From IMG/VR virus record IMGVR_UViG_2645727901_000008: a DNA stretch of 64,000 nucleotides; one strand, 5' to 3'. The notes below the pieces were generated by a model that was not told the origin of the DNA, ran no database searches, and saw only the letters and a program-made list of their open reading frames with translations. Positions 2,169-54,269 of this stretch are shown here, piece after piece (position 1 is the first letter of the stretch; every line of letters starts with the position of its first letter). Source of the stretch: a virus. Its lineage: Duplodnaviria > Heunggongvirae > Uroviricota > Caudoviricetes. The position numbers were made by a program, and so were the translations under genes.

Positions 2169-2212
2169 CCAATTGTGTTAGAAAATTCTATTCAATTATC
2201 TAACACAATTGG
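2169..2212. promoter_or_regulatory. Palindromic site CCAATTGTGTTAGA-N16-TCTAACACAATTGG immediately upstream of rdgC start
   Basis: Perfect 14-bp inverted repeat read directly from sequence; core TGTTAGA-N16-TCTAACA recurs elsewhere in the window. Confidence 0.5.
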
Positions 2213-2221
2213 ATGTGTTTT

Positions 2222-2875
2222 CTATCCCTTCTTGAAATCAAAGTTGCTTGCGATGGCCTGGAAGGTGCCTCCAGCCTTGAAATCAATATTTTCGTCGGCT
2301 GTCACAGTAATGTTTTTGCCATTAACGCTGATGTTATCGGCTGATTTGACGTTAACACTCCCTCCCGCATTCACTACTACATCAGCCGGACCAATGATGT
2401 ATATCTGCCCTGATTCATTCATTCCAATCCTTGAGCCTGCTGCCGTATTCGCTATTTCATATCCACCGCCAGCCGTTCGCACTTCGAGCACATTGTTGCG
2501 GTGAATCACGAAATCTTTTGTCGCCGAAAATTGCGGGCGGGGAGGCGCTCCGTCTACTTCTGGTGGCGTCCAGCCGCTACCATTGCCTGACGCCTCCGGC
2601 GCGACGTTTGGTACTCCTCCAGGCGCATCCTGAGCTGCGCCAACTATCATTGGGCGTCTGGTATCAATTCGACCATTAACATCCAGATAAGGAAACTCTA
2701 CCCATACCAGGTCGCCTTTTACTGTAGGTACAAACGCGTTACCTATGGGTAACAGGTATTCTGCCCAGGGTAGATCGTCATCAGGAACGCCATTCCAGTC
2801 TGGTAAAACACGGACCTGAGCACGCATAAGCCCTGCCGGGTGCACAGTTCCAACAATTTGCGCTCTACGCTTCAT
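2222..2875 (-). CDS. Baseplate central spike / gpV-like protein (OB-fold plus beta-helix repeats)
   Basis: 217 aa; C-terminal repetitive VNAGGSVNVKSADNISVNGKNITV pattern typical of phage baseplate spike proteins. Confidence 0.5.
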   Translation of the reverse strand: MKRRAQIVGTVHPAGLMRAQVRVLPDWNGVPDDDLPWAEYLLPIGNAFVPTVKGDLVWVEFPYLDVNGRIDTRRPMIVGAAQDAPGGVPNVAPEASGNGSGWTPPEVDGAPPRPQFSATKDFVIHRNNVLEVRTAGGGYEIANTAAGSRIGMNESGQIYIIGPADVVVNAGGSVNVKSADNISVNGKNITVTADENIDFKAGGTFQAIASNFDFKKG

Positions 2876-3852
2876 TTGTTCGGCACTCCTAATATCATTC
2901 GTGTTGTGTAGCCTACGCGGTCTTCAAAGTGCGCAACATTTTTTACTATCAGCTTGCGGGGCATTGATTCATCAATGCGGTTTTCCTGGTCATAGCGGTA
3001 TACGATAATCTCTATTACCATTCCCGGTTTTATATCCGGATTGCCTGCGACTTCTATATCCATTTTGGGGACGAGAGACAGCTGCATATTGCGAAGAGTT
3101 TCCATATCAGAATCGGATATATAACGCACTGGGAGTGAGCTATCGCCATATTCGACGTAGCCATCGGTCATGGAATACCCAACAAAACGATATTGATTCT
3201 TTGCTGTTGTCGCATGTTCCTGTTGGAGTAGGCGCATTTTGGACAAAGTGTATTCTGCTTTAGGGTTATTCCCCTCGTAGGTAAATGATGGCGTTTGCTT
3301 CATCAGATCAGCCAGGGTGTAAAAGTTAAATTCCCCACGGCATACCCAACATAATGCACCTTTGTCTCGCGCTATCTGCGAGAGCATTTTTGACGGTTTG
3401 TCACCGGCATTCAGATGATATGTAACTGCGCGTTTTAGCACGCTGCTGGTAATTTTAAGCTTGCCGGAATATGCCTTGAATATAGCGTCTGGTGTTTTGT
3501 TGGTATGTAAATTTGTGCGCGGGGAGGGGATCTTAAACCTGCGCACGTCTTCACTGACAGCAATAACGGTAACAACATCACCAGCCAGCATTGCAGACGT
3601 AACAAAGAAGTCTGTTTTAAAAGTGCCTGCATTACCGTTTGGATCGCCCATTTCAGCCACCAGCGATGCACCGTATTTGGCTTTCCAGTCATCAATTACG
3701 GTGCCGGTAGCGTCATGAATTTCCAGTTTTAGCAAAGGGGCTTTGAGGCTGGTTTTTTCTACATATACTGCGGTAAAAATCCAGTCTCGTGGCACTTTGT
3801 TATCGTTAATGAGCACTGACTGTAGAAAATATTGTTGTAACTCCTGGGCCAC
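2872..3852 (-). CDS. Hypothetical phage protein (326 aa), possibly structural
   Basis: Long ORF tightly packed with neighbours on the same strand; no motif recognised. Confidence 0.45.
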   Translation of the reverse strand: MAQELQQYFLQSVLINDNKVPRDWIFTAVYVEKTSLKAPLLKLEIHDATGTVIDDWKAKYGASLVAEMGDPNGNAGTFKTDFFVTSAMLAGDVVTVIAVSEDVRRFKIPSPRTNLHTNKTPDAIFKAYSGKLKITSSVLKRAVTYHLNAGDKPSKMLSQIARDKGALCWVCRGEFNFYTLADLMKQTPSFTYEGNNPKAEYTLSKMRLLQQEHATTAKNQYRFVGYSMTDGYVEYGDSSLPVRYISDSDMETLRNMQLSLVPKMDIEVAGNPDIKPGMVIEIIVYRYDQENRIDESMPRKLIVKNVAHFEDRVGYTTRMILGVPNK

Positions 3853-3855
3853 TTA

Positions 3856-4623
3856 TCACCCCATAGATATCGAGGTTTCGGTAATAATACGTTTTGCGTC
3901 CAACTCCCATGCTGTGATCACGTCTGCAATCACACTTATCGGCGCTTGTGTGGCATAAATACGCTCTTCTCCAATTGGTGCCGAAACATCCGTAAATCCG
4001 ACTTCTTTGGCATCCTGTATCGAGCAAATCAGCGGGACCGGGACACGAACAAGGTGAGTGGTTGCTTCAAATTGTGTACCTGTCATCAGGCGAAGCCGTG
4101 CGCCCAGCGAATTACACATCAGACTCATGGTCGCTTTATCAGTTGACATTAACGTAACGTCATACGTCAGAATGGCCTGGGTGTATTCCAGTTCTGCTAA
4201 AGGCATTCCGGTATCCGGTTCGCAAAAACTGGCTACTTTTTTGCGGTCAATCTGCTGATCATCGTTGATATAATTGATATCCATAGTGCGTGAGATATTG
4301 ACCAGGGGGAGAGCATCCCGGTTAATGTTCTGGTTTTCAGGTTTTCTCCCTTGCCCGGCATTTGCGCGACGAACTGCTTTAAGAAACTCGATCGCATTGT
4401 CGAAACGGGCCACATAGACACGCTCTGCTGGTGGACGATTCAGGAATGACGCAAAGCGTTTTTCTTCCGGCGCGGGGGCCACCAGTAAGATATCAGAAAA
4501 GATATTGCTGATTAGCGTAGCAAACGCGTTATCCACGTTTTCAAAGCCCGTGGTCTGGAATTTCCCTGTGCGTGAGGTTTGCCATTCACCTGTTCGCGCC
4601 AGGAGGGTTTTATTTGAAGTCAT
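3856..4623 (-). CDS. Hypothetical phage protein (255 aa)
   Basis: Long ORF in operon context; no motif recognised. Confidence 0.45.
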   Translation of the reverse strand: MTSNKTLLARTGEWQTSRTGKFQTTGFENVDNAFATLISNIFSDILLVAPAPEEKRFASFLNRPPAERVYVARFDNAIEFLKAVRRANAGQGRKPENQNINRDALPLVNISRTMDINYINDDQQIDRKKVASFCEPDTGMPLAELEYTQAILTYDVTLMSTDKATMSLMCNSLGARLRLMTGTQFEATTHLVRVPVPLICSIQDAKEVGFTDVSAPIGEERIYATQAPISVIADVITAWELDAKRIITETSISMG

Positions 4624-5453: not shown

Positions 5454-5488
5454 TGTCTGGAGATTGTGATTTCAATTCATATCCCAAC

Positions 5489-5536
5489 ATGGGACTAAAG
5501 TGCTTTACATTGTCCCATATTGGGACTACTATACTT
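5489..5536 (+). promoter_or_regulatory. higBA promoter/operator region with nested inverted repeats (ATGGGAC...GTCCCAT, GTCCCA-TAT-TGGGAC) and a TATACT -10-like hexamer
   Basis: Inverted repeats read from sequence directly upstream of the higB RBS. Confidence 0.4.
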
Positions 5537-5556
5537 TCAGAGAGAAGGAATCTGTG

Positions 5557-5859
5557 ATGAAAATAATTTCGGTAAAAACACTAAGGGATTTCTGGGCGAA
5601 GAATCCCGATGCAGAACAGCCATTAAAGGCATGGGTTGATGAAGCAACAAAGGCTGACTGGAAAAATCCGGCTGAGATCAAAGAACAGTACCGGACAGCC
5701 AGCATCCTTAAAAACAGGCGCGTGGTGTTCAATATTAAGGGAAATGATTACAGGTTAATTGTCGCAATTGCTTATCAGCGAGGATGGATGTTCGTTAAGT
5801 TTATTGGAACACATAAGGAATACGATGCCATTGAAGCGGATACAATAGAACTGGAGTAA
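5557..5859 (+). CDS. higB: Type II toxin HigB (RelE-superfamily mRNA interferase)
   Basis: VFNIKGNDYRLIVAIAY...FIGTHKEYD aligns with E. coli HigB VFNVGGNELRVVAMVF...VMTHKEYD; ATG at 5557 with GAGAAGGA RBS. Confidence 0.8.
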   Translation: MKIISVKTLRDFWAKNPDAEQPLKAWVDEATKADWKNPAEIKEQYRTASILKNRRVVFNIKGNDYRLIVAIAYQRGWMFVKFIGTHKEYDAIEADTIELE

Positions 5860-8574: not shown

Positions 8575-8767
8575 AACAAAGCCTCTCAGTCATAACATGG
8601 GGGAAACTGTATGCAGGGTGTGAAATGCGAGAAACAGACAGGCCACCAGTTCAGGGGGATGTGGTTCATAAATCCCCTCACTGGTGACAAGTGACTTTCA
8701 TTAATCTTTATGCGGGGGCCAGCTTCATTTGCTGGCATTAGATTAAAAATTAAACGGAGTGAATGAC

Positions 8768-9556: not shown

Positions 9557-9824
9557 TGTCCTTCCTCCACGGATGACGGATACAAAAAAAGGCCGCACAT
9601 GGCGGCCTGCTTTGGCGTTATGACTCCCTACCGCGCTTCGGCTGAAAGTTAATCGTCAAAAGAACCTTCAACGGGAGCCGTTAGCGCGATGGATTATGTG
9701 CAGTTTGTGATTTCCAAAATAGTGTCAACCACTTTTTGTGGATTTTATTTTTTGACCGAAATTTGGCCTAAATCATGTTGATGTAGTTAATTGTTTTTAT
9801 AACATAAAACTTCATTTTGTTTAC

Positions 9825-14541: not shown

Positions 14542-14756
14542 CAGTGCGCCTCCACGCAGTTCATCGGCAGATTCCAGTAATTGAGGATCTCCATCGCATC
14601 AAGAGTGAAGCGAGCAGCAAAAATGCAGGGTTCTTCGGGAAGGTATGAGCGCGCCTCTGCTTCGGTAGCAGCCATGACGCAGATATACAGGTGTTTTTGG
14701 CAGGAATAGAAACGCCAGATAAATTCAGAATGAGTTGGGGTAGGGATAGTAGCCAT
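14541..14756 (-). CDS. Icd-like small protein (assigned by position upstream of the antirepressor-like gene)
   Basis: 71 aa; AAGGAGG RBS; paralog of ORF at 52468-52692; same order as P1 icd-ant. Confidence 0.4.
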   Translation of the reverse strand: MATIPTPTHSEFIWRFYSCQKHLYICVMAATEAEARSYLPEEPCIFAARFTLDAMEILNYWNLPMNCVEAH

Positions 14757-15067
14757 ATTGGCAGCCTCCTTTGACTAAGTTAAGGAGCTACCGCGTGAGG
14801 TTCCAATCTCAATGGCGGTAGCACTGACTGGGTTGGAACTACCGGCGTCAAAGGGAACCGGCCTGCCTTTCGGCAGCCCAGCCAGCACTACCATTGATCT
14901 CTGAGCTAAACGCTACGTATGGCTGTGCGATGGCATGACACAAAAAAAGACGCTTTCGGCGTCTGTGTCGCCTTTGACATTATCCGGGGTTCCAATCCCG
15001 GCACCCGTTTTTCTAAGGTGCCGTAGAAATATACCCCACGATAATGCCAGGGCGCAACAGTCAGTAT

Positions 15068-15238: not shown

Positions 15239-15567
15239 TGACACCCCCAGCGCGAGTAAAGAATGCAGATTATCGCGTGAGTGGCGGACAACGAGTGATG
15301 GGAAAAGACAGTAGCTGTTCATAGTGTAGTGACTCCTTGCTTTCGGAGCCGCCATCGACTGTTCCACGGTCTGGTGGCGGCGCAATAAAGGCTGGAACAC
15401 CGTGAGTCAACGGGGGCTTTTCAGCCACCTATATTGCACCGCCATAGGTATAGCGGCGGCAATAATACGAAAAACTAAACAGTTTGTCTCAAAAAGTTGA
15501 CCGGTGTGCCAATCGGTAGTGAATGTACATCGGAGAAATTTACAATTCAACTTAAAATGTTAGAAAA

Positions 15568-16146
15568 CTAATTTATCAATTCAATCGCCATCTGATACAA
15601 CGTCATTTCATCGGCATTGTGCCGCATGAAATCTGCTTTTCCGCCTATTTTTCCGTCAGCATGAACAGGGACCAGCCAGGGATATTGTTCTCGGACCTCG
15701 GCTGGCGCTGCGTACTGGTGGTGCCATTTACACAAAGGGAGGACATATTTATGCGCGTTCTCTGCCGTTCTCCCGAAGATATGGTGCAGGGATACTACTG
15801 GGCTATGTTGTCCGTGAATATGGCAGGCAATGCAGGGGAGAGTACCGATAGCGGTCTGTATCCGGCGTTCATCAGCTGTGAGTGATCTGCCCTTCAGGCC
15901 GCGTGACGTGCGTGTTTTTTTGGGCGGAGCGGATACAGCTTTATCTTTTCTCCGCTGTTCATATTGCTTTGCTTTTTCAATTTTCTTTTGCCGATATTCA
16001 GGCGATGCGGCTTTTTCTCTCGCTCGCTGCTGCTGGCGTTGAGCTTGTTGAAGGCGCTTTGCCCTTTGTTCCTCTCGCCAGGCCGGGTCAGCCAATTTTT
16101 GCATGGCTTTTTGTCTCTGTTTCTCCCAATAGCTCTGTTTCTGCAT
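15568..16146 (-). CDS. ref: Ref-like HNH endonuclease (recombination enhancement function)
   Basis: Basic N-terminal region plus CIACHIHG...SLHHI...CKWHHQYAAPAEVREQYPWLVPVHADG as in P1 Ref. Confidence 0.8.
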   Translation of the reverse strand: MQKQSYWEKQRQKAMQKLADPAWREEQRAKRLQQAQRQQQRAREKAASPEYRQKKIEKAKQYEQRRKDKAVSAPPKKTRTSRGLKGRSLTADERRIQTAIGTLPCIACHIHGQHSPVVSLHHIFGRTAENAHKYVLPLCKWHHQYAAPAEVREQYPWLVPVHADGKIGGKADFMRHNADEMTLYQMAIELIN

Positions 16147-16194: not shown

Positions 16195-16224
16195 TGTTAG
16201 ATATTCAAAATTGATTTTCTAACA
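16195..16224. promoter_or_regulatory. Palindromic site TGTTAGA-N16-TCTAACA in the divergent region upstream of ref
   Basis: Read from sequence; about 50 bp upstream of the ref ATG. Confidence 0.5.
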
Positions 16225-19530: not shown

Positions 19531-19560
19531 CGTTAGAACATTGATTTTAGTTTTCTAACA
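19531..19560. promoter_or_regulatory. Palindromic site CGTTAGA-N16-TCTAACA followed by TATTAT, upstream of the 19603 gene
   Basis: Read from sequence. Confidence 0.5.
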
Positions 19561-37837: not shown

Positions 37838-37848
37838 AATTAGTGTTT

Positions 37849-37962
37849 TATTTTCGACGCCTGAGATTCTTCGCGACTTGTTCTACGCCGTATACGATCA
37901 CAAGTAGAAACAGCAAAAACCATCCAGGGTTCTTATCGATATACGTCCAAAAATCCATCATG
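37849..37962 (-). CDS. Possible small membrane peptide (about 37 aa)
   Basis: Translation MMDFWTYIDKNPGWFLLFLLVIVYGVEQVAKNLRRRK. Confidence 0.25.
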
Positions 37963-38120
37963 AGTTCCTGAACGCACCTTCAATAATCGGCAATAGCAAT
38001 ACCACAGCTACTGAAACTAATGCCCCATCAGCCAACACCGACATCACTTTGCTGGTGAAATCCACCAGTACGGACAAAACGAGAAAGCCAATGGCGCCCG
38101 CAATACGCGCCTTGCCAATC
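37959..38120 (-). CDS. Possible small membrane protein (about 53 aa)
   Basis: Translation MIGKARIAGAIGFLVLSVLVDFTSKVMSVLADGALVSVAVVLLLPIIEGAFRNS. Confidence 0.25.
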
Positions 38121-38121
38121 A

Positions 38122-38577
38122 TTACAGATAATCTTCCACACGAAGGCCAAGACGGCGACCAACCTCTTCCAGAACCTTATGCTCCGCAGGTTCGATTTCA
38201 CCATCTGCTTCAGCGATCGTGAGCATGTTCACGAAGACTTCTTCCGCTTCTTTGGGATCGTTTTTGATATCTTCAATTTCGCGGAGGATATTCATGCGAC
38301 CAACACGGAAACCAGCTTCCAGTTGCTCAGTAAAACGGGTGATTGTTGCGGTAATTTCGTTGCCAAAATGACTTAAGCGAGGATTAGAGCGGACAAGCTG
38401 ATCAAGTTTCGCTGTTTCTTCCTTTTCGATTTCACCATCTGCGGCAGACACCAGCAAACAGCCACCGATGATGGCCTCCATCAGATCGCGATTCTCAACC
38501 CTTTTCAGCTCTACTTTTGCTGAAGCGACTTTCTTACCGAAAAATTTACCGAACATTGGTTTTCCCTCAATAAACAT
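38122..38577 (-). CDS. TerB-like (tellurite-resistance family) protein; start may be ATG at 38556
   Basis: Repeated helical ...ADGEIE... segments typical of TerB-like proteins; GAGGGAAAA RBS before the internal ATG. Confidence 0.5.
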   Translation of the reverse strand: MFIEGKPMFGKFFGKKVASAKVELKRVENRDLMEAIIGGCLLVSAADGEIEKEETAKLDQLVRSNPRLSHFGNEITATITRFTEQLEAGFRVGRMNILREIEDIKNDPKEAEEVFVNMLTIAEADGEIEPAEHKVLEEVGRRLGLRVEDYL

Positions 38578-38823
38578 GACGTATTTATTAGGTTGCGGTG
38601 CCTGGTGCCTCCAGGTGACGTTAACCAGTTAACAATTAACGCCGGGATTTTTGTCTTCACAATTAAGGAGGATTGTTTTAACTGTTCCGCGTGCGCTTAG
38701 CCGCATTCACCGCAATGGTAAGAGCACTTGGCTGGCTGGGCGGCGATGACGCCTGTACGCATTTGGTGAACCGGTTCTGCTTCCGGCATTCGCTTAATTA
38801 GCCAAATACTCTTAACGTTGCAC

Positions 38824-38910
38824 TGGCGGAGAGTAATGGAATCGAACCATCATCGCTTGCGCAATGGGACGGTTTTCAAGACCGCTTGAGCACCATGCTC
38901 CCTACTCTCC
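38824..38910 (-). tRNA. tRNA-Ser-like (anticodon UGA, long variable arm), atypical D-arm
   Basis: 7-bp acceptor GGAGAGT/ACTCTCC, anticodon loop CTTGAAA, T-loop TTCGATT, encoded CCA; folded by eye. Confidence 0.5.
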
Positions 38911-39045
38911 CGTTATTGTGGCGACCGGTGCTGATCTCCGGCTTGCGGTTATTTCAGACTCTCACGGGCGTTTAATTGCCCCGCCGAACAGCTCTTTTCC
39001 GCAATAGCTGCAATGTCTTTCGCGCATCAGCCTGCGCATTCACCA

Positions 39046-39135
39046 CAATGTTGAGAACACTGGTTGTCACGCTGCAACGCAACATTTATTCGTAGATTGG
39101 GATATGACCCCGTTACGCCAGTGTTCTCAACGTTG
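39046..39135. repeat. 18-bp inverted repeat CAATGTTGAGAACACTGG ... CCAGTGTTCTCAACGTTG flanking about 54 bp
   Basis: Read from sequence; one mismatch between arms. Confidence 0.55.
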
Positions 39136-39283
39136 TAGTGCCGGTTACGGTTCCGGCCAGGCCTCTTCCTCAACGGGTTGTTCTCCATACGGACTACCGT
39201 TTATTGGTCGTTCCTGCGGTTTATGTTGTGAAGCCAGATGCTTATCTTCTGGTTGCTTCAAAGAGCTGCACTTCATCACAACG

Positions 39284-39356
39284 GTAAGGGTACTTCGTAG
39301 GGATTCGAACCCTCTGCCAAGCACGGCGATCTCCGACGTCGCAAAATACCCTTACC
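39284..39356 (-). other. tRNA-like element with T-arm (GGGTTCGAATCCC) and 10-bp closing stem but no canonical anticodon arm; possible tRNA pseudogene
   Basis: Folded by eye; T-loop present, cloverleaf incomplete. Confidence 0.25.
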
Positions 39357-39364
39357 TGTTGCGT

Positions 39365-39440
39365 TGGTGCCGATTAACGGGATCGAACCGCTGACCATTC
39401 GCTTACAAAGCGACTGCTCTACCAACTGAGCTAAACCGGC
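39365..39440 (-). tRNA. tRNA-Thr (anticodon UGU)
   Basis: Reverse complement GCCGGTTTAGCTCAGTTGGTAGAGC...CTTTGTAAG...GGTTCGATCC...CGGCACCA. Confidence 0.85.
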
Positions 39441-39444
39441 AATT

Positions 39445-39531
39445 TGGTGGGGAGTGATGGAGTCGAACCACCCGAGTCGCAATGACAGTAGATTTACAGT
39501 CTACCCCGCTACCCCTACGGACTAACTCCCC
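39445..39531 (-). tRNA. tRNA-Tyr-like (anticodon GUA, class II long variable arm)
   Basis: Acceptor GGGGAGT/ACTCCCC, anticodon stem-loop GTAGA-CTGTAAA-TCTAC, T-loop TTCGACT, encoded CCA. Confidence 0.6.
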
Positions 39532-39536
39532 TAAAG

Positions 39537-39612
39537 TGGCGATGGTGGGTGGATTCGAACCACCGACCGACAGCTTAGAAGGCTGCTGCTCTATCCTACT
39601 GAGCTACACCAT
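39537..39612 (-). tRNA. tRNA-Arg (anticodon UCU)
   Basis: Reverse complement GATGGTGTAGCTCAGTAGGATAGAGC...CTTCTAA...GGTTCGAATCC...CACCATCGCCA. Confidence 0.85.
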
Positions 39613-40853
39613 CACTTGCCGGGTACGTCTCCGGCGAGGGCTTCCACCTCCGTATGCTTTTCGGCGCACCGCGCCCTGGCTGCAATTCAGTAACAGGGGA
39701 TGCATAACCCTGGCTTCCAGCGTGATTAGCGCCTTCAGCATGACGGGATATACCCGTAACCAACAAACTTTCCCATATACCATCAAACAATGGCTGTTAC
39801 GCGGGAGGGACGTAACAGGTAAGGGCGCTGACCAGAAAGACCTGACCCTTCTCATTCATCTGGTTAATCACACCAGCGCCCTTGCCTGTTATGTCTCCCC
39901 GTTCCCTAATACACAGACGGGGACACTCTGCGGTCGATTTTTTGACGGGGGACGACTCATACCCCGTGGCGTCTGGCTTCTTAGGCCGCTACCATCATCA
40001 GATCATCGTTTGCATTTACTTTAATGGTCGGTTTCTAAACCGCCGCAAAGCCGCTAACCATGACGAAAACCCTAAAAAAGCCCACCCGAAGATGGGCAAA
40101 TACGCTACATCTCACACAAGAAAGAAGCCGACTGCCTGAGCTGGATTCACTTTCAAATGCCCGCAGAAAGGGAACACAAGTCGGCTTCTTTCTTGATGCG
40201 GCACTCTCTCCGCCCGTCACCGTTCTGTCTCGGTTGTCGCGTTTGCCACGCCAGCCGTAACGAGGTTTAAAGTCTTTGCACGTTTCCATCACTCGACTGC
40301 CGTCTGTGGCTGTTCGTTGCAGCGGGGGTGCCTCCCCCTGGGGATATCCCCGGCCTTACCCCATTCTTTCAAGACACAATGCAAGGCCGCATCCGCATAG
40401 GTGCATTACCGCAACATTAAGGAGACTTAGGGCAAAAGGTAATCGCCACAAAAAAAATCCCTATGCCTCCTTAATGTTGAGGATGTGCATTGATGATGAT
40501 TCGATGCGGCGAGTCCCGTTACTCTCTGCCGGACCATCATCAATGAACATCTTAAAAAGACCTTCCGTGGCTCAACATGTCTTGTCGTTTACTCCGTAAA
40601 GTGCTCTCTCTGAAACCACTTTACGCACTAAACCTGCTGAACTTTGGCTTGCTCGGTGCCAAAGCGAGTCCCTGTATGTATGTAATTTTCTAACACTTTA
40701 ATTTGTTATTTGCTGGTGGGCGAACAACAACCAATAAGTGACTATCAAGCCCAGCAAGCGAAATGTGGCAACGCTCCACCAGCAAGGAAAATTCTAAGTT
40801 AAGTTACTCTCACAATCAATACGTTCGTTTAGTGAAATTAGATTTCTAACATT
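39613..40853. other. About 1.2 kb without a convincing CDS; rich in long-loop inverted repeats
   Basis: Only short, overlapping ORFs in all frames; 13-bp inverted repeat CAACATTAAGGAG...CTCCTTAATGTTG around 40408-40478 and others. Confidence 0.4.
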
Positions 40854-42074
40854 TTATTTCCCATAAAGATCTTCTACGCCCCCATTCTTCTTGTCCCATT
40901 CGTTAGCCCACACCCGGCAGGCATCAATAATTTCTTGACGACGGTCGCCCTGCATAAAGGGGATGCTTTCATGAAAACTACTTGGGATACAGGCCACGCT
41001 GAATACGGTATCAAACGCAGTCTGTTTGATAGCTTCCAACGTCTCTGGGCGCATTTTCAATTCATCGATCGGCGCATCCTTAGAGTCCATAATCCGGCGA
41101 TGCAGGCGCGGGAAATCAGTCTCCAGGTACGCCATAATTTTATCTGCCAGGCATTCGTCTATATCGGTATTCCAGTCCGTTTCGAAGCCGGGCAGGCGAT
41201 AGTAAAGCGGCGTTCCCCATACTGATGGGATCACATCCATCGTCAGCAGGCGGTTGGTTCTAATTTGTTGATGGTAATTAGCCGTCAACAGAGCTTCACC
41301 ACGCTGACCAGTCTCCGCAACCAGACCATGCGGGTACTCATGGATATAGGCAATAGCATCCACCCCGTCATACATGAGCGGGAATGTCTCTGGCCTTTGT
41401 CCCATACCACAAGCGCGGTTCAGATCATGACCAAGCTGTGAGCACTCTCGTTTCAGCGTTTCAATAATGTTCTGCGCTGTTGCTAACTTTTTACGCAGTG
41501 TGACGCCTTCGCCTTGATACTTAATGCATTGCTGATTCAGCTCTGTTAAACGCTCTTTTAGTTCCCGACGCTCTCTTTTCAGCGCACGGTTATCCTTCTC
41601 CGCAACATCCAGTCGTTTTGACAGACTGGCTGGATAGTCTTTTTTGTAACGACTCAAATCGGCTTCTGCGGATTTGCGCAGTGTGTTTGCCTGTTCAAGA
41701 CGCGCTTCCAGATTACCGATCTCACTACGCATATTCGCGGCAAATTGATTAACAGCATTGCCAAGACTTTCAACTGTCGCTGATACGCCTGTGACTTGTG
41801 AAAAACGGATCAAGCCATCATTAACGGCTTGTTGATATCCCTCAAACTGATCCACCAGCTTGTTGTAATCAACCGTCCCTTCCTCAAGTAGCTGGTTGAT
41901 CTCCGCGACCAGGTTATCAGTAGTGGCAATGACGCTCTCATGTAACCGTCTGGACAGGTCATCCCCCGGATTCCGCTTTTGAATAAGGGCGATCTGTGTC
42001 CGCAGCGTTTCAATCGCGGCTGAGATGATTTCCAGATTAGAAGTATCAGTTTGTTGACTCATTGCAGTTCCCAT
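40854..42074 (-). CDS. Hypothetical coiled-coil protein (start likely ATG at 42074 or 42062)
   Basis: Long ORF; the ORF-track start would place a TTTCTAACA motif inside the gene. Confidence 0.5.
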   Translation of the reverse strand: MGTAMSQQTDTSNLEIISAAIETLRTQIALIQKRNPGDDLSRRLHESVIATTDNLVAEINQLLEEGTVDYNKLVDQFEGYQQAVNDGLIRFSQVTGVSATVESLGNAVNQFAANMRSEIGNLEARLEQANTLRKSAEADLSRYKKDYPASLSKRLDVAEKDNRALKRERRELKERLTELNQQCIKYQGEGVTLRKKLATAQNIIETLKRECSQLGHDLNRACGMGQRPETFPLMYDGVDAIAYIHEYPHGLVAETGQRGEALLTANYHQQIRTNRLLTMDVIPSVWGTPLYYRLPGFETDWNTDIDECLADKIMAYLETDFPRLHRRIMDSKDAPIDELKMRPETLEAIKQTAFDTVFSVACIPSSFHESIPFMQGDRRQEIIDACRVWANEWDKKNGGVEDLYGK

Positions 42075-42177
42075 TGTTTTTTGCAAGATTAGTTTTCTAA
42101 CATATTTTATTAGTATGAGAACAAGAGCGAAAGATGTGATAAACAAAAAACCCGCTAATCGGCGGGTTTTTGAGCGG

Positions 42178-42492
42178 TTATTGTGTCATTGCCTGGTAGA
42201 TAAAATACACGATGCATACCGGTACGATAGCCCATTGCAGCAATGAAAGCAGCCTCATGGCTGTCATGGGAGTAACTCCATCTACGTATTCCTTCTCTGA
42301 CATTTTCCCTAACCAACTAACCGACAAAAGGGTCGAGTTCTCCCCCATTTCCAGCTCCCTGAGGGCTTCCCGGATTAAAGGCGCTGTTACCACCTTGCGG
42401 GCAGTGTTGAGCGTAATGCTCCGCGTCCTCCCGGCGTCATCGGCAAACGCCAGGTTCACATGATATTTTTTGCTCAATGTACAAACTCCCAA
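42178..42492 (-). CDS. Hypothetical membrane protein (104 aa)
   Basis: C-terminal hydrophobic LLSLLQWAIVPVCIVYFIY. Confidence 0.4.
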   Translation of the reverse strand: MGVCTLSKKYHVNLAFADDAGRTRSITLNTARKVVTAPLIREALRELEMGENSTLLSVSWLGKMSEKEYVDGVTPMTAMRLLSLLQWAIVPVCIVYFIYQAMTQ

Positions 42493-42674
42493 TCATTGGC
42501 TTTCGCGCTTTCCGGGGTAATGCATACCTTGTCGCCGGTAACTATGTTTCGGGCTTCTAATGCCCCATCATCCATCTTTTTAAGCTCTATACAGAAAGAA
42601 TGAGGCCATGAGCAGCGACGAGCAACAACGTTAGCACCAGCAGGGATAAGTTCAGCCACGTTAAGTAAACGCAA
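42474..42674 (-). CDS. Hypothetical small protein (66 aa)
   Basis: ORF in track. Confidence 0.3.
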   Translation of the reverse strand: MRLLNVAELIPAGANVVARRCSWPHSFCIELKKMDDGALEARNIVTGDKVCITPESAKANDWEFVH

Positions 42675-42688
42675 AACGATTTCTCCGT

Positions 42689-43132
42689 TTAATCAAGACA
42701 AACATATTCCGTGATAGCTTTTATGGCTTCATCGGCACTGCGCGCCTCAAAGCAGTAATAGCCTGCTTCCGTGAGGCGAGTCATCCAGACGAGCTGTTCG
42801 GGAGTCAGACGGTTTCTCCCGTGCTTCATCTCAATGCGCATTCCGTGATACCCACCACGAGCAAGGTCAATAGAAAGGTCCGGATAGCCCTTCTTCTGAC
42901 CTTCTGCCACCATCTTAATGGCTGTCCTTTTGCCTCTCAGGCCGCCGTTCGGTGTTGAGTGTGTGTGCTCATACACGTATCGCATGTTGCGATACAGCCA
43001 ATCCAGAACGCGAACCTGTTCGTAATGTTCGTAATTCCGTTTTAATAAGTCAGGATTTCTTTCTAACTCTCTCAGTGCAGCAGCGTGCGGGGATATTTCA
43101 GAATACGCACTATGATGCCTGCGTCTTCGCAT
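42689..43132 (-). CDS. VRR-NUC domain nuclease-like protein
   Basis: GYPDLSIDLARGGYHGMRIEMKHGRNRLTPEQ resembles the VRR-NUC (PD-(D/E)xK) motif; ATG at 43132. Confidence 0.6.
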   Translation of the reverse strand: MRRRRHHSAYSEISPHAAALRELERNPDLLKRNYEHYEQVRVLDWLYRNMRYVYEHTHSTPNGGLRGKRTAIKMVAEGQKKGYPDLSIDLARGGYHGMRIEMKHGRNRLTPEQLVWMTRLTEAGYYCFEARSADEAIKAITEYVCLD

Positions 43133-43320
43133 CAAATTTCTAACACAAACTTACTGAATTCATGAACACGATAATAACAAGAGCGTTAGTTTTATCAAAC
43201 CGAGGGGAATACTACTGAAGAGATAGGCGGATGCAACAGGTCGGACTTGTTTTTAGAGTAAATGGTGATGCGGGTCAACAAGCCGGGTAAATTGTATGTC
43301 ATTTACCCAACTTGTTATTT

Positions 43321-43581
43321 TTAATGGTTTATTTTATCAGGTTCGTTAATTTCCGTAACCGCCTTGTCGATAGCAATCATCCATCCTTCATAGGATAAAT
43401 CATCAACAAGTCCCACCAGCTTATCGTCAGTGTGCGGAAAATAAATCCATCCCCATTTCGAAGGGTTTCCTATATGCCGCAGGGTAAATACCCGCTTATA
43501 ACGGTGGTATTCAAGGGCGTATCCCTTCCCTTGTGAGTACGCTTTTAAGTCGTCGATCGTAAACCTACGATTCTTCCGCAT
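43321..43581 (-). CDS. Hypothetical protein (86 aa)
   Basis: ORF in track. Confidence 0.4.
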   Translation of the reverse strand: MRKNRRFTIDDLKAYSQGKGYALEYHRYKRVFTLRHIGNPSKWGWIYFPHTDDKLVGLVDDLSYEGWMIAIDKAVTEINEPDKINH

Positions 43582-43583
43582 GG

Positions 43584-44018
43584 CTACCCCACGATTCGAT
43601 ATTTCTCTATAGACTCGTCGTAACTTGTGTATACGTATGGCTCTGTATCATCAGCATAAGGCGCGACTTCCAGAGCATGAACGGGATTGTATACCGCGTC
43701 ATTTTCCAGGCGATCGCTCGAATACAGATGCCCGGCTAAAACCGTAAGCGCCGGGCGACTCATTTTGTAGATTTCTGCCACATCACTATCTACAACTTGT
43801 CCAAATGATATGTCGCCACGCTCCAGCAATAACGTTTTAAGCGCAGGCCACCACGGCCCATAAAGATGATAAAGCTGTGGATCTCTTTTCAGCCTTTCCG
43901 CCATGCCATCCAGATATGCATCCAGAAACGCCTCTTCACTCCTGCCATTGAGCGCCTGCGGCAAAATGTCCTCAAGGTAGGATTCCGTCGGTTTTACAGT
44001 GTCAATTAATGTCGTCAT
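43584..44018 (-). CDS. Hypothetical protein (144 aa)
   Basis: ORF in track. Confidence 0.45.
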   Translation of the reverse strand: MTTLIDTVKPTESYLEDILPQALNGRSEEAFLDAYLDGMAERLKRDPQLYHLYGPWWPALKTLLLERGDISFGQVVDSDVAEIYKMSRPALTVLAGHLYSSDRLENDAVYNPVHALEVAPYADDTEPYVYTSYDESIEKYRIVG

Positions 44019-44054
44019 TCAAATTCGGCCCCGGTTGGGGCCGCTCCTTATCTG

Positions 44055-47000
44055 TTAGGCCGCATCGGCGATTATTTTACGCAATTCATCTACCGAGTAA
44101 CGCGTAGATACCATCCATGCAGGACGGTCAAAGTTCACATCAGCAACCGGGTTTGCTTCAAAATTCCAGAAACGCCCGCCAATCTTCTTAATCGCGTCTT
44201 TGGCGTTCCGTATTGTCGAGGAACCAGGTTGGTCGGCAATGAGATAAACCGCACCGACGTCCTCGCTGACACTCCACCAGCGCCCGCGAACACGCGCCTT
44301 AGCGCGAATCGGCTTATCATTAACCACAATGATATAGTCATCATTCGCCGCTTCATCAGCTCTGGCTTCAGCCACTGCCGCCTGCTCTTCTCTTTTGCTT
44401 TCAGCCTGTTCAAGCCTTTCCGCGATCTCTGATTCGGTGGCCCCGCCGTTTTTCAGCGATACATAGTCTTGCCACGTTGCTGATTTGAGCGCATCCGGCA
44501 ACTCATTCACATAGTCACCGTCTTTCAACTCACGGGCGCGGCGGGTAGCCATTTCTACCAGGCGATTAACAGAAACAGCATCAGCAAAATCGTCCTTACT
44601 AATGTGTTTTTCATCAAATGCATTGATGACAGCCCCCACCTTAATCCACTGCGCTGCTGGCGAATCCAGAGGATTATCGGCCTGAACAATGGCTAATTTC
44701 GCTCCATCGACACCATTATTAGCCAGCTGCTCCAATGCCGACCAGCCATCGGCATCGCTGAGTGATTTATATTGCTCAAACAATGCATCGCGCCAGGCCA
44801 CCAGCGCAGCTCGTGTTTTCTCAATTTTCGCCGTAATTTTCGCGGCCTTCACCTGATTAAACATCCGTTCAATGTCATCAGTGTTGCTAAAGGCTTTCAT
44901 CCTGCCCTGGAATAAACGGTATGCCACCACGGTCTTCCAGAAAGATTCCAGCCCTTCTCCGGACGGTTTACGGAACAGGCTAAGAATATCTTCAGAAGTA
45001 ACTTTATTAAGTGAGCGACCGGACAAACCACGCCCTGCCATCCAGTTTTCAAACTCCTGGGAAACATCATCCATCGTGGCCTGTGACCCCCATGCCTGCA
45101 TTCCCTGGATGTAATCATATCCATACAATGCCTGGAGGAATCCCTCGCCGTCCACGACATTCAGCGGGTTATCACTGGCTTGTATTTTTGCCACTTCACG
45201 CTTCAGCGCCTCATCGTTGCCATCAGGGTAAATCCACCGCTCAGGCGCTATATCCGATGCTCGCCCGATTTTTTGACCTATTACGCCATCATAAGCCGAT
45301 GACAGTGCAATCTGACCATCATCGGTGCGATAAGCCCAGTATTTAATAGCTGAACCACCGCCCCATACTCTACTAGGCTTCCCGGCAGTGACATTCATTA
45401 CCCCATTGCGAATAGCATCATAGAACTGATCGCGCGTAAGTGTTGTTGATAGCTGGTGGCATTGAACACCACGTGCAGCTGTTTCACGCGATTCTGCAAC
45501 TCCCTCTTCAAAGGTTACCGATTCAATTATCAGGTTAAAGGGCAAAAATAATGCCGTCCCCGGAGAACGAGAGTAACGACTAGCCACATCCAGCCAGGAT
45601 ATGCGGCACGTACACCCGCCCCTTTCCGCATCAATGGCGGTAACACGAACAATTGCTGTCGTATTGTGATTCTCATCGATGATCGCGCGATAATGGCTGC
45701 CCTTGTGCAACAAGATATTTTTCTCAGTGCGTACATACTCCTGTGGGTTCTGCAATACATCGGCATCAAGCTCCAGAACCCCGGCTTTAATCGCACGTTC
45801 CAGATCACCACGAGAACGTTTCATAACGGTGTCAGCGTCTTTAGCTCTGGTGATCGCAAAGCGTAGCTCCCGCACACGTTTTCTGTAGTCTCGCAACTGT
45901 TCCAGAACATATTTCTGCCCGTTCCTGTTCGTCCCCGCTTTAATCAGGTCGTCAAGATTGCGCTGGTAATGCTCTACCTGCTCCATCGCGCTTTTCAGTT
46001 CTGTCTCCATCATGCCGATATCTTTCCCGGCAGCATTCGCCGCTTTCAGGTAGTTATCGAGAGCATTATTGGCTTCGCGTAGGGCTTTCAGTTTCAGACG
46101 TTCTTCACGCTCTTGCGCCTGACGACTCATGATTGCACGGCGTTCTTCCGGATTTGCCGCCAGCATAATGGCGCGTTCATCTGCGTCATCCGCATCACCA
46201 TTGGCGATCTCTGACATGTCGGAGGTCATCACCATATTGATCCAGTCCTTCTTACGTTTCAGCGTATCCAGACGGAAGTCATCAAATGTGCCTTTGCCAC
46301 AATAGTAGTGAACATTGACCTTTTCTTGTGGTGAGCCTACCCGAGCGCCGCGCCCATTACGTTGGTCGATACTGGCAGGAGTCCAGGGTAGTGTCAGATG
46401 GTGGATATCGGTTGTCCCGATGTGCAAGTTAATACCTACTTCAGCCTTCTTGTTACAGATTATGATGCGCGTGCGACCTTCGTTATAGTCGGCGGCAATA
46501 CCTTCCATGCCCTCAAGGCCAGCATCATTTTTAGCTGAGAGATAATCCTCATATTGGGCAAGTTTGCTGTAGTAGGTTTCCCATGCACCTTCTTTGTATT
46601 CACCGTTTTTATTTGGCGTAGGTTCAGTCGGCTTATTCACCTTCTTCAGCTTGACGCCGCCAGCCTGGCTAACTGTCGTCGCATTGATAATGCCTATCTC
46701 CTGCTCCGGCATTTGCAGTGCACTGGCAATAATACGGCGCAGCTTCTGGTGCTGGGCTTTTTCATCAATGAAGACGATTTGTTTACCGTTCTTCAGACCT
46801 TCACGAAGGTTTTCGATCAGCGCGGCATACTTCGGCGGGATGGGGTGTGATACCTGCTGCATATCAATACCGGCAGCCGCAATGGCCTTCAGTATTTCAG
46901 CTTCCAGTTCAATGCCAGCACGTATTTCAACATGCGACGGATGTTCGCTAAAGGTGGTCTTCACTACCTTGCTGGCACGCGTACTGACCAGCCCACCAGC

Positions 47001-50894: not shown

Positions 50895-51045
50895 AGGATT
50901 TCCCCCTCTAAACCGTAAAAAATTCCGCTATGCGGTACGGTTGAGAGGGTATGGAGAATGTTATTTTCAGGGGGACGATACTACCGTCAAAATCACATAC
51001 TCCCCATAGTTTGCCTACTTATTAACCCATGACCGGGAGAAAAAT

Positions 51046-52692: not shown

Positions 52693-53022
52693 AGTTACGG
52701 CCTCACTAACAGGTTTAACAACCTGCTACCCGCTGCTAAACAGGTGGCAGGACGTGACGGGGTTAGCAGACTGGCGTTAGTGAAACCAGCAGGCCGAAGC
52801 CTCCCCATCACGCCCCACCATAATTTGGGCGTAACGCGGTTTTACGGACACAAAAATACCGCAATATCGGATATCTGCGGTTGTCCGCACTAACATTCAG
52901 GCTGCTAAACCCGGTCGCAGAATTTGCTACGACGACATGAATATAAGCCTGAAAACATGGAAGATCAACTAAAAATTTCAGCAATAGATGACTTCAGTCG
53001 ATGATGCAGATCATACATTCCG

Positions 53023-53052
53023 ATTTAGAAACGGCAAATTAATTTTCTAACA
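53023..53052. promoter_or_regulatory. Palindromic site ATTTAGA-N16-TCTAACA about 330 bp upstream of the second icd/ant-like module
   Basis: Read from sequence; imperfect left half. Confidence 0.45.
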
Positions 53053-53106
53053 CAAAATGTCGAGCGAGCATTTTCCGATCATTGGGATGTTTTGTAGACG
53101 CACAGG

Positions 53107-54069
53107 TCACCCCCTAAAGCCAGCCGGGATTGACCAATCCTCACGGTCAAATTCAGACCGATAGCCACGCTGTTTCATCAGGTCAAAGGCTTCACCAATG
53201 GTTGCACACCCCTGGGAGCCAGAATAATCCATTGAGAAATCCAGGGCACTGGATTGTTTAGGCTTATTCACTGCGGTAGCGGCACTACGTATCCATGCAA
53301 ATTTTTTTGCCAGCTTTTCAGCGGTACGATACAGAGCCTGCCGTTTTGTGTGCCCCTCGTCTGAACGACGCTTTGCAGCTCTCGCTTTTGCCGCCGCCAG
53401 GCAGTGGTTGGTCTGTTCTTCCCTGATTACTGTTTTTTTATCCAGCACCCCGTTATCCGTTTGAGAACTATCTGCTGGTGAAGCCTTTGGCTGAACCGCG
53501 CATGATCTTTCTCTTCTTTTGGCTATAGAGTGACTCTTATTTTCTATTGGCTGTTCATTTTGAACATGGGGGGACTTGTTCAATTTGAACAGGGGGTTCC
53601 CAGTTTCAAAAAAATAACGAACCTTTGAAATCAACTGCTTAACCAGTTTTGTGGCGTTGGCAAATTTGATGCCCTGCTTACCCCCTATCTCCATTGCTAC
53701 ATGAATGAAGTGGAGAAATTGTGTCGTAAACCGATATACGTTACACACCTGGGCATTGTTATTCGCTACCTGATGTTGCTTAACAAGCATTCCGCACTTC
53801 GTCGCTTCAGCAAATGCCCGGCGTACAGTAGAAATACTGCGTCCTGTAATCTCGGACATATCAGCATATGAGCGACGGATCATGTATTCATCGGTAGACC
53901 CTGCCAGGTTGGCGAACTCGGCAATAATGGCGCTATGTGAAGGGGAAAGAAGACCGCTATGACGAGCAAAAAAACTCAACTGATGACCTTTGATTTTTTT
54001 GTGGTATTCAGTGTTGTTTTTATACTCAGAAGTGTTGAAAGTTACTGAAACTGAATTTAAAATATTCAT
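53107..54069 (-). CDS. RepL-like HTH protein (possible lytic replication initiator)
   Basis: HTH-like SYADMSEITGRSISTVRRAFAEATKCGML; TGTTAGAAATTT motif upstream. Confidence 0.4.
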   Translation of the reverse strand: MNILNSVSVTFNTSEYKNNTEYHKKIKGHQLSFFARHSGLLSPSHSAIIAEFANLAGSTDEYMIRRSYADMSEITGRSISTVRRAFAEATKCGMLVKQHQVANNNAQVCNVYRFTTQFLHFIHVAMEIGGKQGIKFANATKLVKQLISKVRYFFETGNPLFKLNKSPHVQNEQPIENKSHSIAKRRERSCAVQPKASPADSSQTDNGVLDKKTVIREEQTNHCLAAAKARAAKRRSDEGHTKRQALYRTAEKLAKKFAWIRSAATAVNKPKQSSALDFSMDYSGSQGCATIGEAFDLMKQRGYRSEFDREDWSIPAGFRG

Positions 54070-54130
54070 CAGATAGTTCCGTGCAAAAATCTATCTACCG
54101 TATAAATCTATGCCAGTGGATTTATACACC

Positions 54131-54165
54131 AAAAAGCCGCTTCTCAGCGGCTTTTGCTTTTTTTG
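54131..54165. terminator. Bidirectional rho-independent terminator (AGCCGC-TTCTCA-GCGGCT flanked by A5 and T-rich tract)
   Basis: Read from sequence. Confidence 0.6.
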
Positions 54166-54269
54166 GCAGTCGCTACCGGAGCAGTGACCGCGATCCTACT
54201 CAATCACATCGGACAGGATCAACAGTGTATATAAATACACTATGTTAGAAATTTAATTTCATGCAGCGG

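Follow-up and report, generated by a model that had tools for sequence, protein, structure and literature searches.

A 17-bp motif dispersed through the window, the 64,000-nucleotide stretch of viral DNA analysed here, is best explained as the operator of a 345-aa homolog of the phage P1 repressor C1, which would serve as the master lysogeny repressor of a heteroimmune C1-type operator network (estimated probability roughly 0.85). Such a C1-like network had been put forward in the original prediction, and is supported by the positions of the P1 operators, C1 homology and the exclusivity of the sites, as well as by covariation among lineages, phylogenetic footprinting and an in-place operator swap at a P1-like c4 region. 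The window belongs to a D6-like relative of P1, being ~93% identical to D6 over ~83% of its length. Phage D6 itself (MF356679, AY753669), the sequenced prototype for this cluster of plasmid prophages, carries the same motif in 16 sites at 13 homologous loci. The control system is of a known kind; its site sequence is without annotation in public records, including both D6 GenBank entries, and may have been described earlier in the literature.

The anticipated enrichment over shuffled sequence was observed, with 12 exact copies of TGTTAGAAA/TTTCTAACA in the window versus 0.65 expected and none of 100 shuffles reaching 12 or more. A weight-matrix scan (strong-site cut-off 16 bits) returned 15 sites at or above this score versus 0.15 expected, and an unbiased ranking of 9-mers, Chi aside, placed the C1 operator core at the top in P1 and TGTTAGAAA at the top in the window. 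As a control for AT-rich intergenic composition, the non-coding DNA of D6 alone holds 11 copies versus 0.15 expected; all 16 D6 sites fall within the non-coding 10.5% of the genome, and a single TGTTAGAA occurs in its 82 kb of coding DNA. The motif as first described is real but was drawn too short, since per-position information content stays at 0.6-1.2 bits up to position 17 and is noise beyond. The site is an asymmetric 17-mer, (T)(R)TGTTAGAAAWYTAATTT, or written out (T)(R)TGTTAGAAA-W-Y-TAATTT, with specificity residing mostly in positions 1-9 and an AT-rich 3' end. Sites come singly or as overlapping inverted pairs, and no copy is coding. Pairs are present at five loci, where the 17-mers overlap by 4 bp with identical spacing and a total span of 30 bp. 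Four of these were recovered as the equally spaced TGTTAGA-N16-TCTAACA palindromes already noted, here delimited as 2176-2205 (0 mismatches), 16195-16224 (0), 19531-19560 (1) and 53023-53052 (2), against 0.16 expected, and the degenerate pair at 36310-36339 was recovered by weight matrix. The single sites previously listed at 15558, 30479, 31879, 40845-40851, 42096-42102, 43139-43145 and 54243 were likewise confirmed. A half-site placed at 40679-40685 had been mislocated: the 17-mer there has its TCTAACA core at 40689-40695 and its opposite end at 40679.

Annotated P1 operators could be matched by position to these sites, namely Oref, Omat, Odmt, Oc4, OrepL, Obanab, OpmgR, O26/Oppp and Olpa, together with the c1 region. 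The c1-proximal operator TGTTAGAAAACTAAATC (31879-31895, +; 27.4 bits) lies 12 bp ahead of the c1 start codon, a placement seen in every lineage examined, and downstream of a promoter-like TTTACT-17-TAGATT; its identity among D6 and the relatives L005, L006 and L007 is 0.94 versus 0.81 in the flanks. A weak distal site, ATTTAGAAAATTCTGCT (31789-31805, -), is situated 74 bp upstream of the proximal one, so that the two flank the c1 promoter on both sides. The window, D6, L005, L013 and L014 all have the inverted distal site at a distance of 74-75 bp, and L013 and L014 have it as a full TGTTAGAAAAA. The operator in the pro-repL interval (54243-54259, +; 29.7 bits), 174-190 bp ahead of the repL start, is 0.94 identical versus 0.80 in its flanks (RepL homolog 29% identical); its counterparts are P1 OrepL, controlling kilA-repL, and a copy of the Citrobacter motif at the equivalent place (L009, 39802). 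Upstream of lpa (35839-36231, -; PF25716 at E 5e-57), the degenerate bivalent operator at 36310-36339 (22.1 + 8.8 bits) is kept in D6 and L007 and matches P1 Olpa.

Two c4-icd-antirepressor modules each have an operator. That of module 1 (15558-15574, +; 28.8 bits), equivalent to P1 Oc4, which controls c4-icd-ant, follows directly after the ref stop codon and is upstream of the module, comprising a C4 RNA (14811-14898, -), isrK (14943-15021, -) and an Icd homolog (14559-14735). In the bivalent operator of module 2 (53023-53052), a weak inverted half is paired with a strong one at 53036-53052 (-; 30.8 bits), whose 3' end overlaps the -35 element TTGCCG of the promoter TTGCCG-16-TATGAT; the RNAs of this module are c4-a1b1 (52894-52946) and C4 (52740-52825). 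A further bivalent operator (16195-16224; 27.7 + 11.2 bits) separates ref (-), whose product is 56% identical to its homolog, from a divergent early operon (+); P1 has Oref before ref, and the Citrobacter motif is at the matching place (L009, 13615). The rdgC/hrdC-methylase operon (-) is headed by two overlapping inverted 17-mers (2176-2205; 23.9 + 18.5 bits, 0 palindrome mismatches) within an extended palindrome at 2170-2211, with counterparts in P1 Odmt before uhr-hrdC-dmt and in the Citrobacter plasmid with its own motif (L009, 5364).

The remaining sites head operons on both strands. The bivalent operator of a pdcB-like operon (+) at 19531-19560 (26.5 + 16.8 bits) overlaps TTGATT-17-TATTTT and is kept in D6 and L007. 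At the head of the dut/isaA operon (-), a site directly adjoining the dre (Cre-like recombinase) stop codon (30479-30495, +; 29.8 bits) is 0.97 identical versus 0.80 in its flanks among four relatives. It has the same placement and orientation in L005, L007 and L014, and in Citrobacter with that lineage's own motif (L009, 18374). The tRNA/tci operon (-; tRNAs at 39368-39613 and 37765-37837) is headed by a site at 40835-40851 (-; 27.8 bits), 16 bp upstream of a promoter-like TTGATT-17-TAGAAT (40819-40791), and has a second operator in its leader (40679-40695, -; 22.5 bits), at which the TGTTAGAAA core is kept in D6 and L007 amid diverged flanks. The heading site is bivalent in L007 (28195/28224), and its P1 counterpart is Obanab, which heads an operon with tRNAs and tci genes. 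At the head of pmgS, a site at 42086-42102 (-; 27.5 bits) directly after a conserved -10-like TAAAAT is 0.90 identical versus 0.66 in the flanks (D6, L007, L005), and corresponds to P1 OpmgRa and OpmgRb before pmgR-pmgS. The site at the head of a pmgM-like gene (43129-43145, -; 22.2 bits) is ~25 bp downstream of a strong promoter-like TTGATA-16-TGtTATTAT; D6 retains TGTGTTAGAAA there amid unrelated flanks, with a score below threshold. A possible weak site, TGTTATAAAAACAATTA (9788-9804, -; 14.2 bits), lies between mat and a simB-like gene and is also present in D6 at 72211, P1 having Omat before mat; we regard it as tentative. Across relatives, the footprinted 17-mers are 0.90-0.97 identical and their flanks 0.66-0.81. 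Sites overlap, abut or sit just downstream of sigma-70-type promoter-like elements, an arrangement expected of repressor binding. Some, though, are distant from any persuasive promoter, such as the repL site (174-190 bp before the start codon) and 15558, for which the best -35 candidate is 8 bp away and another ~70 bp away.

Sequence comparison shows the candidate repressor (gene at 31907-32944, +) to be distantly homologous to P1 C1. It is 20% identical to P1 c1 over 239 aa in tblastn (E 2e-5), and D6-type and P1-type C1 alignments match with 98.4% probability in hhalign (E 6.8e-15, 19% identity). Its homologs carry the precomputed domain PF27008 (Phage_P7_repressor_C1), the D6 allele, to which it is 89.9% identical, being annotated as 'prophage repressor' (orf1). 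The predicted structure of the protein resembles only Tus, a monomer on asymmetric Ter sites, with TM-scores of ~0.4. In sequence the two proteins are not similar (hhalign probability <1%, PDB profile search empty), and the Ter core GTTGTAAC is absent. Ter and the operator share two DNA blocks, with 2 bp more between them in the operator, and this DNA resemblance may therefore be due to chance. Functionally, Tus arrests forks in the replication fork trap of E. coli, whereas transcriptional repression is proposed here.

The form of the motif follows repressor lineage. Relatives with 70-81% and also those with 45-52% repressor identity retain TGTTAGAAA, while the same positions hold CCTTAGAAT in a Citrobacter lineage (28% repressor identity) and TYTTAGAAA in a Pantoea lineage (29%), and the site is GTCTAAT(T/A) in a Serratia lineage (21.5%); no clear motif was found in an Enterobacter kobei lineage (L011). 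The matrix of motif enrichment by lineage is diagonal, the distant-lineage motifs having been derived post hoc from the sequences on which they were also scored. Because every gene has diverged in the distant plasmids, this covariation cannot single out C1 among co-evolving regulators, and many functionally uncharacterised proteins are encoded in the window. The sites could instead be operators for another phage- or host-encoded DNA-binding protein co-evolving with the phage backbone, which we consider improbable given that the regulon agrees with that of P1 C1 locus by locus, that the site ahead of c1 is invariant in its position, and that the sites have the hallmarks of C1 operators in length, asymmetry and single or paired form. 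A host factor in particular is unlikely, as plasmids whose enterobacterial hosts are related carry different motifs.

Less probable still is that the motif is no repressor site but a core element of an early promoter class that RNA polymerase recognises directly, alone or with a phage factor. The reverse complement of the core does contain a -35-like CTAACA, which may act as such within the 30479 site (TGtTATCTT follows 16 nt later), and TA precedes about half of the copies to give a -10-like TATGTT. However, both orientations are seen relative to downstream genes, five loci have inverted pairs with perfect spacing, and the motif has no constant placement with respect to the best promoter-like elements; general promoter scans found fewer promoter-like sites than in shuffled sequence and did not single out these sites. 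Hardly credible is the alternative also raised originally, that the motif belongs to Lpa-dependent late promoters as the equivalent of the P1 -22 box and activates late genes: the same TATGTT, the sites ahead of the morphogenesis genes pmgS and pmgM, the Lpa homolog and the near absence of P1-type late promoters (only 8685-8707 scores strongly), by which the late promoters of the window must look different, would fit, but the motif does not resemble the -22 box AAGTGACTT, is missing from the structural and lysis operon heads (genes 26-25, genes 7-24-6-5, darB, prt/pro, the dar operon and lydA), heads early and immunity genes that are C1-controlled and not Lpa-controlled in P1 (c1, lpa, repL, c4-ant, ref), is inconsistent in orientation, varies in offset (ahead of the -35 at one extreme, ~25 bp past the -10 at the other), and in module 2 takes the place of a proven C1 operator.

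That replacement is one of the lines of evidence for the C1-type operator network. Module 2 and P1 share 89-91% identity beyond P1 position ~48195 (downstream) but 28% upstream of it, and P1 Oc4 has been replaced in place by a D6-type site with its orientation unchanged. The P1/P7 C1 system (ImmC; Op sites, consensus ATTGCTCTAATAAATTT) has a homologous PF27008 repressor and a 17-bp operator consensus (PMC8546580), the same length as the window site. Shared features include asymmetric sites in single and overlapping inverted-pair forms, ~15-20 of them dispersed and heading the same gene set (c1, lpa, repL, c4-icd-ant, ref, hrdC/dmt, the tRNA/ban operon and pmg genes), an AT-rich 3' end abutting the -35 at c4, and C4 antisense RNA governing the antirepressor modules. 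Inverted-pair geometry, c4 promoter overlap and the Serratia intermediate place P1 ATTGCTCTAATAAATTT and the D6-type TGTTAGAAAAYTAATTT in the same orientation, in which the two site types correspond at their AT-rich 3' ends and differ in their 5' halves. The TCTAA(C/T)A core earlier thought common to both operators compares opposite strands of the two sites and is probably a coincidence. The operator sequences themselves differ, with no P1-type operators in the window at three or fewer mismatches and no D6-type sites in P1. The repressor has 345 aa here versus 283 aa in P1 (~19-20% identical), the 17-mers of an inverted pair overlap by 4 bp here (span 30 bp) and by 6 bp at P1 Obanab (span 28 bp), and, unlike P1, the window has two c4-icd-antirepressor modules with separate operators and a repL that lacks kilA in front. 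Homologs of Coi, Lxc, C8, KilA and Ant1 were not detectable in the window; without Coi or Lxc, the circuit is not a simple copy of that of P1.

We infer, as most likely, that the 345-aa protein binds the 17-mers, and how it does so and represses. By analogy with P1 C1, one monomer would occupy each 17-mer, and the 30-bp bivalent operators are probably bound more tightly or cooperatively. In the prophage, the repressor would block initiation or early elongation at lytic promoters, as the sites lie at or just past sigma-70-type promoters. It would thereby silence lpa (the late-gene activator), repL (lytic replication) and both c4-icd-antirepressor modules, along with ref, the rdgC-methylase and tRNA/tci operons, pmgS, pmgM, and the pdcB and dut operons. 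Autoregulation of c1, possibly by looping as in P1, is suggested by the two sites that bracket its promoter, and derepression may proceed via the antirepressors, themselves restrained by C4 antisense RNAs. Lambda-type CI/Cro control likewise has a prophage master repressor that silences lytic promoters and is autoregulatory. The repressors of lambdoid phages are helix-turn-helix dimers on symmetric operators clustered at one immunity region, whereas the sites described here are asymmetric and scattered across the whole replicon.

The window is ~93% identical to Escherichia phage D6 (MF356679) by megablast of positions 30000-45000, which identifies it as a D6-like plasmid prophage distantly related to P1, and the same interval matches many near-identical plasmids of E. 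coli, Shigella and Salmonella. In a whole-window blastn comparison ~53 kb of the 64 kb aligned to D6 as mosaic blocks, and the gene names used here were taken from the D6 annotation. C1 proteins of the window's clade were found at ≥60% identity in ~130 PLSDB records. E. coli, Salmonella and Shigella commonly harbour D6-like phage-plasmids, some of which carry resistance genes.

The repeated motif reported in the original prediction is real, with TGTTAGAAA/TTTCTAACA occurring 12 times in the window versus 0.65 expected. The associated TGTTAGA-N16-TCTAACA palindromes are present at 2176, 16195, 19531 and 53023 with 0-2 mismatches (0.16 expected), and the half-site placed at 40679-40685 should read 40689-40695. 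A weight-matrix scan identified 15 sites scoring ≥16 bits, compared with 0.15 expected, adding a site at lpa (36310) and the partner halves of inverted pairs. Alignment of the copies indicates that conservation extends well past the 9-mer, holding at 0.6-1.2 bits as far as position 17, beyond which only noise remains. The resulting D6-type site, (T)(R)TGTTAGAAA-W-Y-T-A-A-T-T-T, is 17 bp long, asymmetric and non-palindromic within a single site, and the five inverted pairs in the window all span 30 bp. In phage D6, all 16 sites fall within non-coding DNA, which makes up 10.5% of the genome, and the 82 kb of coding DNA contains a single TGTTAGAA. As the 9-mer is enriched within D6 non-coding DNA alone (11 copies versus 0.15 expected), the signal is not an artefact of AT-rich intergenic sequence. 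Among D6-like relatives, the 17-mers at the pmgS, dre-downstream, c1 and repL sites are conserved at 0.90-0.97 versus 0.66-0.81 for their flanks, with an essentially invariant 9-mer core. When 9-mers were ranked in an unbiased way, the leading family other than Chi was the C1 operator core for P1 and TGTTAGAAA for the window. Chi itself (GCTGGTGG) has 44 copies in the whole window versus 1.7 expected, and Chi-containing 9-mers are similarly enriched in P1 and distant relatives.

The window carries D6-type sites at 13 dispersed loci, which head lytic or early operons or lie at c1. For comparison, C1 operators and Lpa late promoters were extracted from P1 as annotated in AF234172. Sites with P1 equivalents are those at c1 (31879, with a weak inverted site 74 bp upstream; c1 region operators in P1), lpa (36310-36339; Olpa), repL (54243; OrepL), the two C4-RNA antirepressor modules (15558 and 53036-53052; Oc4), ref (16195-16224; Oref), the rdgC-methylase operon (2176-2205; Odmt), the tRNA/tci operon on the minus strand (40835-40851 and 40679-40695; Obanab), pmgS (42086-42102; OpmgR) and pmgM (43129-43145; O26/Oppp). 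Further D6-type sites are present at the heads of the pdcB (19531-19560) and dut (30479) operons. Most sites overlap with, adjoin or lie shortly after sigma-70-like elements, and the promoter-overlapping operators (c1, pmgS, pmgM, c4 module 2 and the tRNA operon) are oriented with the gene. Three genes have an operator directly 3' of the stop codon, namely ref (operator at 15558), dre (30479) and pro (54243), in all three cases in the same orientation to incoming transcription. The best local sigma-70 match (TTGGCA-16-TATAAT, 11/12; 31665-31692, minus strand) is within or beside the rox recombination site and directed at the recombinase gene dre, and the right arm of rox is overlapped at 31701 by AGTTAGAAAC, which nearly matches the operator core.

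The alternative raised alongside the operator proposal, that the motif is an Lpa-type late-promoter box, does not hold, since the TGTTAGAAA sites are unlike the P1 -22 box (AAGTGACTT, with a -10 hexamer 4-5 nt further on; AF234172), are missing where the structural and lysis operons begin, and vary in orientation and in distance to -10-like hexamers. A matrix built from nine annotated P1 late promoters recovered a single strong site in the window, at 8685-8707 (plus strand, 24.5 bits). Given only one strong P1-type late promoter despite a clear Lpa family member encoded in the window (PF25716), late promoters of D6-like phages may be built differently from those of P1. Late operon heads share C-rich/G-rich inverted boxes, e.g. 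GTCCCCC...GGGGGA, located at 5454-5590, 8575-8700, 50895-51045 and 63237-63370; the heads bearing them are those of genes 7-24-6-5, genes 26-25, the darB/hydrolase divergent region and lydA.

The proposal of a C1-like operator network is instead supported as the probable reading, both by the match to P1 operator loci and by the homology to P1 C1 of the 345-aa protein encoded next to the c1-proximal site (31907-32944, plus strand). The latter shares 20% identity over 239 aa with P1 c1 (tblastn, E 2e-5), and hhalign comparison of the D6-type with the P1-type C1 alignment scores 98.4% (E 6.8e-15, 231 columns). Precomputed assignments to PF27008 (Phage_P7_repressor_C1) exist for homologs of both types. 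Judged from its sequence, the 345-aa protein is a distant C1 homolog.

P1 has 22 dispersed C1 operators with a 17-bp asymmetric consensus, and the roles of its Coi, Lxc, Ant and C4 have been described (PMC8546580). The D6-type operator belongs to this well-known kind of system, as P1 and the window have in common a homologous C1, a 17-bp asymmetric site, dispersed operators including at c1, and both monovalent operators and bivalent operators made of overlapping inverted pairs. The bivalent operators span 30 bp in the window versus 28 bp at P1 Obanab, and the predicted window repressor is 60 aa longer than P1 C1. The two specificities are distinct: the P1-type operator ATTGCTCTAATAAATTT (from the AF234172 annotation) has no match within three mismatches in the window, and the D6-type matrix finds no sites in P1 and 16 at homologous loci in D6. 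This lack of cross-matching sites indicates that the window is a member of the P1-type C1 immunity networks with a different specificity. Neither D6 GenBank record annotates the D6-type operator, no description of it was found in the literature searched, a set excluding the D6 genome and Dre/rox papers, and searching the literature for the motif itself turned up nothing but unrelated primers.

The original prediction had matched the D6-type and P1 sites through a shared TCTAAYA core, an alignment that pairs opposite strands. Three observations favour co-orientation instead: the inverted pairs of both phages place their AT-rich ends centrally, both operator types run the same way when the c4 regions are aligned, and the Serratia site GGTCTAATAAACTAATT is intermediate between GCTCTAATAAATTT and TGTTAGAAAACTAATT. 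We therefore favour, from these sequence comparisons, co-oriented sites in which the AT-rich 3' ends would be equivalent and specificity would lie in the 5' halves.

The C4 antisense-RNA-governed antirepressor operon headed by a C1-type operator (ImmI in P1) has counterparts in the window, which, unlike P1, has two such modules, at 14811-15021 and 52740-52946 (minus strand), with operators at 15558 and 53036-53052. Rfam places their C4 RNAs at 14811-14898 and 52740-52825, the two C4 matches score 77.1 and 70 bits and a c4-a1b1 match 51.5 bits, and Icd homologs are present in the window. The first module is diverged, with an isrK-like Hfq-binding RNA match (Rfam, 62.7 bits) directly upstream of its C4. 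The second is ~90% identical to the P1 c4 region; when aligned from P1 Oc4 to c4, identity is 89-91% from approximately P1 position 48195 through a1/b1 and C4, and 28% upstream of that position. In place of P1 AATGCTCTAATAAATTT, this second module carries TGTGTTAGAAAATTAATTT, which is oriented like the P1 site and has its 3' end on the -35, and the strong half of the operator (53036-53052) is the 17-mer TGTTAGAAAATTAATTT. A P1-like module with a D6-type site in place suggests a P1-like cassette fitted with the operator of the resident repressor, and such in-place replacement would illustrate how mosaic exchange and immunity are reconciled. In P1, Coi is an antirepressor encoded next to c1 and Lxc is a corepressor. 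Homologs of Coi, Lxc, C8, KilA and Ant1 were not detected by tblastn within the window (~27 kb of the replicon lies outside it), the dre-c1 interval contains no ORF of ≥60 aa, and Lxc was likewise not detected in a study of a D6-like plasmid (PMC6799933).

Searching plasmids by tblastn produced a graded series of repressors, and the motif tracks repressor lineage. Three relatives with repressors 70-81% identical to that of the window (L005, L006 and L007) keep TGTTAGAAA at the same loci, and three with repressors 45-52% identical (L013, L014 and L015) keep the core TGTTAGAAA(A) with an altered 3' half. Motifs of the more distant lineages, found post hoc in plasmids where everything has diverged, are CCTTAGAAT(T/A) in a Citrobacter plasmid (repressor 28% identical; 8 copies versus 0.7 expected), TYTTAGAAA in a Pantoea plasmid (29%) and, in a Serratia plasmid (21.5%), GTCTAAT(T/A), which occurs among others as a pair 5' of c1. 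The Citrobacter motif occupies positions equivalent to those in the window, before rdgC, ref and c1 and abutting the recombinase stop codon, as well as after pmgS and between pro and repL. The matrix of motif enrichment across genomes is diagonal. The Serratia candidate came from the region upstream of c1; the top k-mers of that plasmid were rejected as operators because they are RepB iterons. A de novo k-mer search of an Enterobacter kobei lineage gave no convincing motif. In L015, a 16-kb locus on a Logan contig (SRR12267734) whose repressor is 45% identical to that of the window, the 9-mer AGTGTGAAG is present in six copies (0.1 expected), possibly as an iteron or a further class of operator.

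Because the motif follows repressor lineage, operator sequence should predict which phage-plasmids are mutually immune, and it would also define the lysogeny regulon. The repressor-operator pairs are potential engineering parts, expected to work orthogonally to P1 C1. The series TGTTAGAAA, CCTTAGAAT, TYTTAGAAA, GTCTAAT and GCTCTAAT provides a ready-made system for studying co-evolution of protein-DNA specificity, in a case where operators scattered genome-wide must change together.

It is an old puzzle how C1, a monomer that lacks any recognisable DNA-binding motif, recognises an asymmetric operator of 17 bp. An AlphaFold model of the window repressor (pLDDT 85.1, pTM 0.56) had a single significant Foldseek match in the PDB, E. 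coli Tus bound to Ter DNA (E 1.4e-7, probability 1.0, ~305 columns, with a TM of only ~0.4), tentatively suggesting a Tus-like fold. Like C1, for which this has long been known, Tus binds an asymmetric site as a monomer. The viral structure library contained no significant match to the model, a PDB profile search with the repressor was empty, hhalign gave probabilities of 0.3% and 0.1% for the two C1 alignments against Tus, and no link between C1 and Tus was found in the papers searched. The P1-type C1 model (pLDDT 57) was too poor for comparison. Resemblance between the operator and TerB (sequence from PMC4499146) was set aside as evidence, as the blocks TATGTT and AACTAA align only with a 2-bp indel, and the Ter core GTTGTAAC is absent from the D6-type operator.

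We give somewhat less than even odds, roughly 0.4, to the broader proposal that the C1 family (P1, P7, D6 and relatives) is Tus-fold, with possible orientation-dependent roadblocks and a specificity code at operator positions 1-2. If so, the fold would explain the reading of an asymmetric operator by a C1 monomer and, if confirmed, be the first structural rationale for such binding. C1-operator complexes, like Tus-Ter, might then act as orientation-dependent roadblocks, a reading that fits the uniform orientation of the operators following the ref, dre and pro stop codons and the alignment of the promoter-overlapping operators with their genes. Positions 1-2 (TG, CC or TY before TTAGAA) would be a simple code that defines immunity groups among P1-like phage-plasmids.

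Two further observations concern the relatives. Rfam places four tRNAs on the minus strand of the window (37765-37837 and 39368-39613), and those at homologous positions of MF356679 are listed on the plus strand, suggesting that the strand annotation of that record may be wrong. The Salmonella Typhi plasmid pK91 (NZ_CP029871; L006) carries a c1 70.6% identical to that of the window together with the operator and the dre-dut block, a remnant that is embedded in a conjugative IncFIB multiresistance plasmid (qnrS1, blaTEM-1, sul2, tetA) and ends at an IS26 just after c1.
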